Part shown: piece after piece, positions 32,301-52,850 of the stretch
Layout of the letters: each line of letters opens with the position of its first letter
How positions within the stretch are numbered: position 1 is the first letter of the stretch
Assembly (NCBI RefSeq): GCF_006345805.1
Contig: NC_043005.1
Coordinates: 20,212,001 to 20,276,000 of the forward strand
Source of the DNA: Octopus sinensis
Lineage: Eukaryota
Direction of reading: 5' to 3'
Length of the DNA: 64,000 nt
Position numbers and translations under genes: made by a program
The notes under the pieces: model-generated
What the model was told of the DNA's origin: nothing
The model's input: only the letters and a program-made list of their open reading frames with translations
Databases searched by the model: none

Positions 32301-35300
32301 TCAATTCATTGATGTAATCTTTGAAACAATTTAACGAAATGTTCTTAACACAGTCAATTTACAATTTTTGTCTGAAAGCGAATTTCATTACAGGTAAATT
32401 CAACAAAATATAAAATTATTTAAATTTTGTTTGAAACATCAGCATAGAAAATGAGTTGTTGGCTAATATTCAATGAGAATACAAAGAAAAAAATGATGCA
32501 AATTACTGGATTATTTATCAGTTAAGATTAATGTACCATAGAAGAAAACTAAATACTGGAATTTGTTTTTGAAGAAAACTAGGAAATGAAATACATCCTA
32601 TCAACTATATGAAAAACTCACATGTATATATAAATACAGTGAAACATACAATAATGAACTAAAAGACAATTGTAAGTGGTGGAGATACAAGTAAAATTCA
32701 ATTTTTGCAGCCATCACATATGTTATTTACAGTTTATACTGAAAATTGCTTCTGCTGGATACATAGAACTTAAGATTACAAATGTTGAGCTAGTTCTGCA
32801 TCAAGTGTATTGATTTATTCTTTAATACAGAAAGTGACTTTTCCTTACATCGTCATCATCCAACGTCTGCTGCCCATGCAAGCAAGCTGCACCAGACTCT
32901 AGTCTGATTTGGCATGGTTTTTATGGTTGGATGCTCTTCCAAACACCATTTTACAGATTGTGCCGAGTGCCTTTAGGTGGCACCAGCCTTGCAGGTCGAC
33001 CTTCACTTAACAGTTCTGCTGTGGAGTACCGGTTTACTCGAGTACAGCAGGGTGCCAGGCACCTTGGACTCCTGTCATCTCACCTGAAAGGTTCAGAGTC
33101 CTGAGATCATTCTTCAGTACTTCATCCCTGGGCCTCCCACTTCCACACTTTACATCTACTTTGAAAAATCGGCACTTCTTTATAGAGCTGTCAACAACCC
33201 TCGTCACATGATCAAACCAACAGTCTTCTCTCTTACACACAGCAACTAATTCCTATGCCTAACTTCTCTCTCAAAACATTAGCACTGTCAAACGTACACT
33301 TATGTTACAAATCCAGCAGAGCATACTAGCTCATTCCTTTCTAACCTTCACATGTCCTCTGCATTCAGGCCTCACGTCTCACAATCATGTAGAATGTAAA
33401 CACTCATATACACCATATAGTTCTACAAAACCTCAGTCATCACCCAAAATCAAGAGAAAAAAATAATCTGTTACAATGAGTTAAGAATTTGAAACATTTT
33501 TTGTAGTAACATACCCTCTAATTCTTATGACAAAAGCCAGTTTTGCACCACTGGGAACATAGTAGTTTCCAGCTCGGCGAGCTTCACGACGCAGCCTGAT
33601 CTCTTCACGTGCCTGCATGCGATACTCTTTTACATATTTCTCAGCTCGGTGAAAGATTGTTATCTTCTTCTTCTTGAGTTTCTGAAGTGAAAGATTAATT
33701 ATTGGATCACTCTACTGCTTTAAAATGGACAACCAGAAATGGGAAGAGCAAACTAAGAACTTTGCCATTCATCTGTGAAAAATATTCAGATGGCATATAT
33801 AAGCTAACAACTATTTAACATTCATTCACCTGTTCCAGTTTATAAATCAATAATTTCTTACAGTTGAGTTACATAACCACTAAAGAGAAATTAAAACATT
33901 TTTATAAATACCTGGACTACATTTTAACAGATTTTAATAAAAAAAAATTAAAAAAAGAAATTTAATTACTGTTCAATTTTTAATCAAAAACAAGTTTTCC
34001 TTTTCAACATCAATATCTAGTTCTAATAAAACTATCTCCACTAAAAAGAATGCAAAAGGACTAAAGAATAGTAAGAGATACATACGGCTTTTTTCTGGAG
34101 AAGGTCAGCCTTTCGTTTGATAGCCTGAGCTTTCCTGGTTTTCCTTCTCTTCAATATACTTTCAGGTACTTTGGGGATTTTTTTGTCACTGGAAAGAAAA
34201 GTAATATTCAGATAGAGAAAAAAAACTATATTCATGGAATTTAGAAATAACTTCATAAGAGCTTAAATTATCAATACCAAAAGATGTAATAAGTCAATGA
34301 GAAAACAAAATCACACTTACCCTCCAGCTTCTTTCCCAGCACTGAAAAATTAAAAAAGTACACATTGAAAACTTTCATGTTACTCAATATTTCAAATAAA
34401 TTGATAATCATCTAAAATATGTTTAAACTGATGATAATCATCTAAAATATGTTTAAATAGAAAATATATATCATCATTTAATGTCCGCTTTCCATGCTAG
34501 CATCGGTTGGACGGTTCTACAGCTGGATGCCCTTCCTAATGCCAACCTCTCCGTGAGTGTAGTGGGTGCTTTTTACATGCCACCGGCACAGGTGCCAGAC
34601 GAGGCTGGCAATGGCCACGATTAGATGGTGCTTTTTACATGCCACCATATATATATATATATATATATATATATATATATATATATATATTGCATATTAT
34701 TTGGACTGTTTTTAAAAGCACAATAAAACACTCAGGATATTGTAAGTTGGCCTCATCAGCTAAACATAGATAACATAGATTAATAAGGTTTTAAAGTACT
34801 GCACTCACAAATGCAAAGTGGTGATTTCAATTCCTCGACTGGACAGGGCAAGGTGTCCTTGAGCAAAACATTCCACTTTGCTCCTGCCTGCACATCAGTA
34901 AATGAGTAACCCTACAACAGACTGGCATGCCAGTCAAGAGGAATCTTATGATCTCTTATATGCTACAAAAACTTGGTAACTAACCCAATGAGTCCTAGTA
35001 CTTGAAACAGTAAAGGTTGCACACAATAGTGTAGACAAGATATTCTAGTATCACCACTTTAACCATTTTAGCATTTAGATTACTCTCCCAAATTTATTGC
35101 TTACTTATGAACAGTTTTGTTTTAATCATACATTATCTTGAAGCTATGAAATCTCACTGATGTGATTGTGTATTTTTAGAAAGATATAGTAGGGTAGGTG
35201 TGAGAGGCAGGATCTAGCTGGTTTGAATACAAAACAGGTAGAATATTTGGCCAAATTAAATGCTAACGATTTAAGCTCTAGAGCATTAACAATTAAAAAA

Positions 35301-52850: not shown

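Follow-up and report, generated by a model that had tools for sequence, protein, structure and literature searches.

A stretch of 64,000 nt from Octopus sinensis (contig NC_043005.1, positions 20,212,001 to 20,276,000), referred to as the window, contains the gene for the ribosomal protein uL30 (RPL7) on the minus strand. Its 20 coding exons, with core boundaries determined by enumeration of GT-AG sites, are spliced to a stop-free reading frame of 343 amino acids. The product matches letter for letter RefSeq RpL7 isoform X1 (XP_029640698.1) as well as chain F as given in 9EHO, an entry for the octopus ribosome. Residues 1-102 form a basic tail in front of the conserved core. This tail is encoded by the start exon and 14 microexons of 18, 21, or 24 nt, designated m1 to m14, between positions 52856 and 34321. 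All 15 tail modules read in an initial annotation of the sequence were located. It is 25 years since ribosomal proteins with histone H1-like tails were first reported from insects, and the origin and function of these tails are still unsettled. In the octopus uL30 gene, a core housekeeping gene, the origin of such a tail can be read in the DNA: a low-complexity sequence was put together one exon at a time, and its duplicates can be dated.

A six-frame search showed each tail module as a separate island bounded by stops, and in a splice-site scan every microexon was placed between a pyrimidine tract with AG and a GT(A/G)AGT donor. The tail exons all end in phase 2. All 14 microexons are symmetric (2-2), shorter than 30 nt, and divisible by three in length; copies of them therefore never break the frame. 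Searches against Pfam (E values up to 1) detected only two families, Ribosomal_L30_N (PF08079; residues 109-179, E 3e-23) and Ribosomal_L30 (PF00327; residues 185-235, E 7e-17). No family matched within the tail, and the winged-helix globular domain of linker histones (PF00538) was absent. A profile search of the genome yielded just one match to Ribosomal_L30_N among 13 candidates and no short-tailed octopus paralogue, and the tailed form is therefore the cytosolic uL30 of octopus. Four further uL30-like loci, 43-56% identical and with introns of about 20-25 nt, are located on small contigs. Upstream of the start exon, a pyrimidine run at 53256-53225 is presumably of the 5'-TOP/TCT-like kind usual for first exons of ribosomal-protein genes.

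Transcript evidence was taken from contigs of five runs from five studies (X1, X2, X9, X15, and X10). None of these is recorded as RNA; they were counted as transcripts because the contigs skip introns at CT..AC ends. A processed pseudogene or a second, short octopus uL30 gene was considered as the source of spliced contigs, and none was found in the genome. Contigs span nine of the 15 joints directly, at depths of 4,757 to 23,042 compared to about 3 to 60 for intron-bearing pieces. In runs X1, X2, X9, and X15, the joints m14-core, m9-m10, and m6-m7 occur in all four, m13-m14, m12-m13, m11-m12, m8-m9, and m7-m8 in three, and m10-m11 in two; several of the same joints are present in run X10 at a depth of 14-20. 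Five distal joints are supported indirectly, by letters in between and loose contig ends. The join between m2 and m3, two identical ASKKAEA exons, was not seen in contigs among the joints listed. A single contig of run X2 in the distal bin reads start-m1-ASKKAEA-TPKK with one ASKKAEA copy, as do RefSeq isoforms X2 and X3 and the O. vulgaris protein (336 aa). The modules of the tail are real, and the spliced tail comprises about 95-102 residues; the common form may thus be 7 aa shorter than the version read in the initial annotation. For the m2/m3 region (47993-48612), a duplication that is very recent or still polymorphic, two exons used in place of each other, or a duplicate introduced by the assembly could each be the explanation.

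Inclusion of the 14 exons of 18-24 nt in this abundant mRNA appears near complete in the main forms. The sole skip joint among those listed concerns m11 and stays below 1% of the depth (up to 101 versus about 20,000 in run X9, 33 versus 8,382 in run X15), and some of these cases are error variants still holding the exon. Contigs lose rare variants, and low skipping in joints that are listed is not equivalent to absence. RefSeq isoforms X1-X7 represent five distinct proteins, which are exactly reproduced by skipping m2/m3, m7, or m5 plus m6.

Self-comparison of the gene revealed that the tail grew through tandem copying of exon-plus-intron blocks. Two tandem triplets and a pair of 1-kb units are apparent (Table 1), and nine of the 14 microexons have a visible sister, the remaining pairs being at the shuffled background. 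A tight 35-place pattern for the 21-nt KK exon produced seven matches in the 2.7-Gb genome, all in the uL30 gene, and none in the control. In O. bimaculoides, the roughly 7-residue KK rhythm is kept with duplicates of its own, and the core differs at only 4 of 235 residues. Duplication of introns driven by small nucleolar RNAs (snoRNAs) is unsupported. Among 26 Rfam matches over positions 28900-53600, nearly all on AT microsatellites, none attained the gathering score, and the three C/D-like spacings found lack terminal stems, none being inside a duplicated unit. Remnants of mobile elements in the introns and downstream of the gene are included in Table 1.

Table 1. Exons, duplicated units, and mobile element remnants at the octopus uL30 locus (positions in the window)
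Feature	Position	Strand	Product or description	Evidence
Likely non-coding first exon	53225..53256	-	starts with pyrimidine run, then GT donor	sequence only; join to next exon unseen in RNA
Start exon	52840..52856	-	17 nt, MVAE, ATG at 52850, phase 2 end	joined in run X2 contig
m1	50504..50521	-	18 nt, SKKGDK	letters between 48612 and 52838 in run X2 contig, depth 3316
m2	48592..48612	-	21 nt, ASKKAEA, same as m3	splice scan, self-comparison
m3	47993..48013	-	21 nt, ASKKAEA, youngest duplicate	flanks 96-98% identical to m2
m4	47413..47433	-	21 nt, TPKKAEA, sole [ST]PxK site of tail	paralogue of m2/m3, 89-92% including introns
m5	45596..45613	-	18 nt, PKKVEK	splice scan; contig loose ends
m6	44490..44513	-	24 nt, KKEVAKKP	paralogue of m7, 85% over 1 kb; joint 41405/44489 in 4/4 runs
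m7	41383..41406	-	24 nt, EKKVAKKP	splice scan, contigs, self-comparison
m8	40874..40894	-	21 nt, VAKKPVE	splice scan, contigs
m9	39914..39934	-	21 nt, KKVAAKD	splice scan, contigs
m10	39394..39414	-	21 nt, VAKKPAP, first acid-free module	paralogue of m11/m12
m11	38402..38422	-	21 nt, VAKKTAP, sole exon with listed skip joint	contigs, self-comparison
m12	37563..37583	-	21 nt, VTRKTRV	self-comparison; 7-8 of 21 nt differ from m11/m10
m13	35516..35536	-	21 nt, ALKKARA, older paralogue of m10-m12	73-74% over about 110 nt
m14	34321..34341	-	21 nt, AGKEAGG, Gly-rich net-neutral linker	joint 34188/34321 in 4/4 runs
Core exon 1	34086..34188	-	Ribosomal_L30_N begins (residue 109)	Pfam, RefSeq match
Core exon 2	33515..33681	-		contigs, RefSeq match
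Core exon 3	31954..32091	-	Ribosomal_L30 domain	Pfam, RefSeq match
Core exon 4	29890..29999	-		RefSeq match
Core exon 5	29164..29372	-	includes stop codon	RefSeq match
Tandem triplet m2/m3/m4	47353..48864		exon+intron units of about 580-600 bp	self-BLAST 91.6% over 925 nt, 89.2% over 333 nt
Tandem triplet m10/m11/m12	37423..39689		exon+intron units of about 0.85-1 kb	self-BLAST 76-89%
Duplicated 1-kb units m7 and m6	41332..45436		m7 unit 41332-42321, m6 unit 44439-45436, transposon remnant between	85.2% over 1042 nt
DDE_Tnp_1_7 (piggyBac-type) transposase	42724-43860	+	broken; intron between m6 and m7	
Interspersed element, 750 nt	36458-37192 and 46346-47095		two copies, 85% identical, in different array introns	
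Mariner-type transposase	31449-31823	+	fragment, in core intron	
Long interspersed nuclear element	24739-25890	-	fragment bearing reverse transcriptase, downstream of uL30 gene	

Comparison of molluscan uL30 N-termini indicated that the tail is not widespread. None of 25 records from non-cephalopod molluscs has such a tail; in 21 the KKxPK-VPE core is reached within 8-17 residues, and the other four are partial, truncated, or, in two cases, have leaders not rich in Lys/Ala. Because these molluscs go from MA(D/E) to the core over such a short distance, the array most likely grew in the interval that separates the start exon from core exon 1. In Argonauta, 46 residues with a charge of +0.15 per residue precede VPE. 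Two marine records branch as sister to octopods (support 100/99) and have Lys/Ala/Pro (K/A/P) tails of 60 and 106 residues. Neither these tails nor that of Argonauta can be aligned with the octopus tail. The sister records are likely squid or cuttlefish, which would make a tail coleoid-wide. Net charges are +25 in O. sinensis, +23 in O. bimaculoides (partial), and +22 in one of the unalignable sister-clade tails, corresponding to 0.22-0.27 per residue. A metagenome scan with the 341-aa sister-clade protein detected five loci of 51-71% identity, none reaching the tail.

In a wider set of 172 Met-started uL30 proteins, at least 45 residues before the core were present in seven, and four of these seven tails are K/A/P-rich, three from the cephalopod clade and one from Timema. 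A separate 50%-representative uL30 search, from which 150 of 3,124 entries were considered, added a tail of 152 residues in Pelomyxa schiedti and further tails ranging from 111 to 302 residues. The tail of 302 residues (record P0239) has three S/T-P-K-K sites, and the Timema tail displays a perfect 10-residue rhythm. When the Timema tail and three short insect tails were aligned with that of octopus, scores stayed at shuffle level (z about 2 or less). The uL30 N-terminus is therefore a recurrent site at which such tails arise repeatedly. Since long K/A/P tails on uL30 are also found in Timema, Pelomyxa, and other eukaryotes, the octopus tail is one of several origins. A protein-atlas search with residues 1-108 gave no usable feature match, and structural similarity did not exceed a TM of 0.39. 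No description of the octopus tail was found in the literature searched, which left most subscription papers outside its scope, and the text and supplement covered of a preprint on the octopus ribosome do not mention uL30 or RPL7 (PMC13321053).

The composition of the tail was determined for residues 1-102. With 33 Lys, 23 Ala, 11 Val, 9 Glu, 8 Pro, 3 Arg, and 2 Asp, Lys, Ala, and Pro make up 63%; overall, the tail has 32% Lys, 11% Asp plus Glu, and +0.25 charges per residue. A KK pair in nearly every module had been noted, and this pattern is clear: 12 of the 14 modules have one, and the total of 14 pairs was matched in 0 of 20,000 shuffles. Distal residues 1-67 consist of lysine doublets with Glu/Asp between them (+0.22 per residue, charged fraction 0.52). 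Four modules, residues 68-95, are acid-free at +0.36 per residue, and the linker region is negative. The earlier view of the proximal modules as purely basic therefore applies to these four but not to the last one, m14, which has a Glu and a net charge of 0. This module is the Gly-rich linker that had been noted before the core, and lies next to core exon 1. The proposed compositional gradient is weak overall. While the position of Arg (p=0.013) and the contiguity of the four acid-free modules (p=0.011) are in favour of a gradient, the mean position of acids (p=0.07), the longest acid-free run (p=0.17), and module charge versus rank (Spearman p=0.54, not significant) are not. When the tails are divided into thirds, net charge increases along those of O. 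sinensis, Timema, and the two sister records; in O. bimaculoides it stays level, and in Argonauta it is highest in the middle third.

For comparison with histone H1, eight of the 17 linker-histone matches in the octopus genome were used. Seven of these H1 tails have 43-48% Lys, 0-4% Asp plus Glu, and +0.42 to +0.48 charges per residue, the eighth +0.25. Local alignments of the uL30 tail to all eight gave z values of -0.6 to 2.4, with 10-371 of 500 shuffles scoring as high, whereas the O. bimaculoides tail, used as positive control, produced a z of 13.4. A database search with the tail retrieved only two Octopus proteins among 8,000 candidates and no H1. Homology to H1 was therefore rejected on the absence of PF00538, alignment at shuffle level, and lack of a database match. 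As far as sequence comparison can tell, the tail is H1-like in composition only, without detectable kinship. Lack of H1 homology and local exon duplication agree with the independent origin proposed initially, yet it is one of several on uL30. The designation as an H1-tail-like polycation is appropriate for the K/A/P-rich composition, but not for charge density, which is half that of seven of the eight octopus H1 tails. Because of this lower density and the 11% acidic residues, the distal two thirds are as KK/E polyampholyte-like as H1-like. The single [ST]PxK/R site (TPKK) had been regarded as an H1-hallmark site for cyclin-dependent kinase (CDK). It is at chance level, 18% of shuffles also having one, and octopus H1 tails hold 0-4. 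Two TP-x-K sites are present in O. bimaculoides, and such a site also occurs in O. sinensis, Timema, and one sister-clade tail, but the motif is missing in two of the five cephalopod-clade tails, Argonauta and one of the sister clade.

AlphaFold2 predicted coil for residues 1-83 and 95-110 (pLDDT about 37-52) and the conserved long helix for residues 111-172 (pLDDT about 85-95). The tail contains no notable hydrophobic or amphipathic segment, only a marginal helix at 84-94 in this model, and the suggestion that it binds chromatin or membranes is without support here. A link to an enlarged expansion segment ES7L of 28S rRNA had also been suggested. In one octopus rDNA copy, about 520 nt separate the base of H25 from the D3 flank, so that ES7L is near 500 nt if the usual D3 flank motif is taken as its boundary. 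In human uL30 (248 aa), the aligned core is preceded by 7 residues. The ES7L lengths given for other organisms are about 210 nt in yeast, 220 in plant, 340 in fly, and 860 in human, and the uL30 N-terminus and the uL4 C-terminus are described as contacting ES7L (PMC10281867). The contact and the enlarged octopus segment are consistent with the suggested link, but across animals a longer ES7L does not go together with a longer tail.

Chain lengths in 9EHO indicate which other octopus ribosomal proteins are extended. eS6 has 808 aa (usual 249), uL4 488 (human 427, fly 401), and uL23 201 (human 156, fly 277), while eL22 has 136 (fly 299), eL14 153, and eL6 277. The eS6 gene (G000:C4:148851165-148853028 (+), L039:1165-3028) has one open last exon encoding a tail of 542 residues with 24% Ala, 22% Lys, 16% Gln, and 13% Pro and a net charge of +111. 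Octopus thus has at least two large basic tails, on uL30 and eS6, which are differently made. The eS6 tail, known here from the genome sequence, is possibly the larger finding. No paper on it was found in the literature searched, again with most subscription papers outside the scope, and it is not mentioned in the text and supplement covered of the preprint (PMC13321053). When the 3' region of uL4 and the 5' region of eL6 were scanned for microexons, no array comparable to that of uL30 was detected. uL4 ends in a K/A/P/T/S-rich exon (L057:1839-2078 (+), G000:C3), with a genomic frame covering about 445 of the 488 aa, and uL23 matches three loci with identical scores (G000:C6 and C27; L032, L033).

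Inspection of the rDNA revealed additional features. All three chromosome-placed 28S copies fetched have an insertion of 1.65-1.8 kb at one conserved point (L022:3025-4811, L023:2235-3880, L024:2349-3992), which we take to be the target site of R2 retrotransposons; the inserted sequence may be an R2-type element that is non-autonomous. The 28S gene also has another large, GC-rich expansion, about 500-640 nt long (L022:4978-5620, with equivalents in L023 and L024) compared to 89 nt in a short comparison copy, which is likely ES27L by its position. Divergent ribosomal-protein and rRNA genes on small contigs (L002-L005, L021, L030, L034, L035, L046, L047, L050, L051, L054), among them the uL30-like loci with introns of about 20-25 nt, are probably derived from a co-assembled parasite such as a dicyemid.

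The structure of the gene, its presence as a single copy, the duplications, the splicing of most joints, and the tail composition are shown above, and disorder is predicted. On this basis we tentatively favour, though with slightly less than even confidence, a tail that acts as an electrostatic arm on the solvent side of the 60S subunit and binds surface rRNA, ES7L first, non-specifically. We infer that it is kept on the mature ribosome and bound to rRNA. The conserved long helix (residues 111-172) would anchor uL30, and the Gly linker would free the tail from this helix. The acid-free, Arg-bearing residues 68-95 may provide the stronger contact, on nearby rRNA, while the distal KK-plus-acid repeats would form a weak, dynamic, exchangeable brush. 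Selection would act on bulk properties, that is lysine doublets, a net charge near +25, and disorder, rather than on sequence, and tail length would change by whole exons. In support of this arm, lysine-doublet peptides coacervate with RNA (PMC11528048), and the tail of fly RpL22 binds nucleic acid in vitro (PMC8701128). Furthermore, m12 differs from m10 and m11 at 8 and 7 of 21 nt, two Arg having been gained, while the flanking introns differ by 7-11%. This excess of change in the exon over its flanks (Fisher p 0.0008-0.012) is one sign of non-neutral change.

Several points weigh against an rRNA-binding arm. The m12 test concerns one of seven pairs compared and was picked after looking. Tail length varies from 46 to 108 residues among cephalopod-clade records, and that of Argonauta is weakly charged. 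A long ES7L does not need a tail, because human ES7L is far longer than that of octopus and human uL30 is short. The ES7L lengths cover only octopus, yeast, plant, fly, and human, and the octopus value is from a copy with an insertion, which is maybe inactive. The tail of eS6 is far longer and sits on the other subunit, which points to a general tendency and not to a fit specific for ES7L. The low pLDDT of the tail is weak evidence, because the model, with a mean pLDDT of 58, is of low quality in some core regions as well. Finally, the sequences in 9EHO were taken from annotations according to the preprint supplement, and the listing of the 343-aa chain is therefore no evidence that the tail was seen.

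The tail may also not be needed at all. An exposed N-terminus could accept residues while a repeat-rich genome duplicates blocks, with only frame, solubility, and basic bias being filtered. Such tolerated drift, which we regard as rather unlikely, would account for the fast turnover, with a rebuilt tail next to an almost unchanged core in O. bimaculoides, for a near-identical youngest duplicate lacking in the main run X2 contig and O. vulgaris, for array introns full of transposon remnants, and for repeated unrelated tail origins on uL30; in addition, yeast tolerates the fly L23a tail (PMC1934995). Speaking against it are 14 microexons whose splice sites are strong and which are included almost fully although the gene is highly expressed, KK kept in 12 of 14 modules, similar charge density in unalignable tails, the excess change in m12, and about 18 kb of extra intron to transcribe. 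Alternatively, the tail could act before the ribosome is completed, in nuclear or nucleolar targeting and capture of pre-rRNA, like the KKE/D domains of small nucleolar ribonucleoproteins. These domains are net-positive, highly charged intrinsically disordered regions with lysine doublets, which suffice for nucleolar targeting and bind pre-rRNA (PMC11528048), and residues 1-67 resemble them in doublets spaced by Glu/Asp, charged fraction, and net charge. However, the octopus spacers are mostly Ala/Val/Pro instead of polar as described for KKE/D domains, and in all other molluscs uL30 gets to the nucleolus although just 8-17 residues precede its core; we consider this function improbable.

Less probable still are two functions that would use the tail in variable or free form. 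Microexons that are all symmetric and multiples of three, and RefSeq isoforms reproduced by exon skips, could allow regulated skipping and thereby tissue- or state-specific ribosomes with tails of varied length and charge; we regard this as very unlikely. Against it, the sole skip listed in five runs is the m11 joint, below 1% of depth and partly due to error variants, although rare forms are lost from contigs. Nor is there much probability, if anything slightly less, that free uL30 moonlights on chromatin as a linker-histone mimic with CDK phosphorylation of TPKK as a switch. The 63% of Lys, Ala, and Pro, the TP-x-K sites in O. sinensis, O. bimaculoides, one sister-clade tail, and Timema, and fly RpL22 as a precedent (PMC8701128) would fit, but the linker-histone domain is lacking, charge density is half that of seven of eight octopus H1 tails, alignments stay at z -0.6 to 2.4, the CDK motif occurs in 18% of shuffles and is lacking in two of five cephalopod-clade tails, and fly RpL22 itself was not detected on chromatin in situ (PMC8701128).

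A broader idea is speculative and has a low probability. The octopus ribosome could wear a lineage-specific polycationic coat, composed of uL30 (about +25), eS6 (+111), and the longer uL4 and uL23, that sets ribosome clustering, mRNA engagement, or nascent-chain shielding. The uL30 array would then be a stepwise dial of charge modules of 6-8 residues, adjusted by exon duplication or skipping. If true, the coat would explain traits of the octopus ribosome beyond the H88 break, such as its translation, which is reported to be about 30% slower than in squid or slug independent of this break (PMC13321053). The tails are candidates for the slower rate, but uL30 alone is unlikely to explain the difference between octopus and squid because of the likely squid-side uL30 tails. 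As a cryo-electron microscopy map, an in vitro translation system, and a slower rate still to be explained already exist for the octopus ribosome (PMC13321053), tail function is testable with existing reagents.

The uL30 tail is already contained in RefSeq, UniRef, and PDB, and the class of tails is known. What appears to be undescribed is that a core ribosomal protein has gained a tail built from an array of duplicating microexons, in addition to the eS6 tail. The closest known cases are the published H1-like extensions at the N-termini of fly RpL22 and RpL23a and, in mosquito, at the C-terminus of RpS6 and the N-terminus of RpL23a; they are regarded as convergent (PMC1934995, PMC548281, PMC11764897). 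All of them except mosquito RpL23a had been invoked in the initial annotation. Like these, the octopus tail is a lineage-restricted, fast-evolving, K/A/P-rich terminal extension of a conserved ribosomal protein, and octopus eS6 shares the long C-terminal tail with mosquito RpS6. In octopus, however, the host is uL30, while eL22 has an ordinary length of 136 aa and uL23, at 201 aa, exceeds the human protein only moderately. The octopus uL30 tail derives from 14 separate microexons.

With the C-terminal domain of H1, the tail shares K/A/P/V low complexity, KK pairs, predicted disorder, and one S/T-P-x-K motif; it differs in its acidic residues (11% versus 0-4%), its charge (+0.25 versus +0.42 to +0.48 in seven of eight), and the missing globular domain. 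The KKE/D domains of Nop56, Nop58, and Cbf5 are likewise described as terminal, net-positive disordered regions of high charged fraction with lysine doublets and acids (PMC11528048), but uL30, compared by description, is a structural protein staying in the mature particle and has aliphatic spacers. Other long uL30 N-termini, such as those of Timema, Pelomyxa, and the insect tails of 30-40 aa, occupy the same site and are K/A/P(/E)-rich, and a 270-aa mammalian uL30 chain aligns 14 residues further on. Mammalian L7 is known for basic N-terminal repeats. With respect to gene structure, the micro-exon genes of schistosomes are closest. They also contain runs of symmetric exons shorter than 30 nt with lengths in multiples of three, but encode secreted proteins varied by skipping, whereas the octopus array is an add-on to a housekeeping protein in which skipping looks rare.

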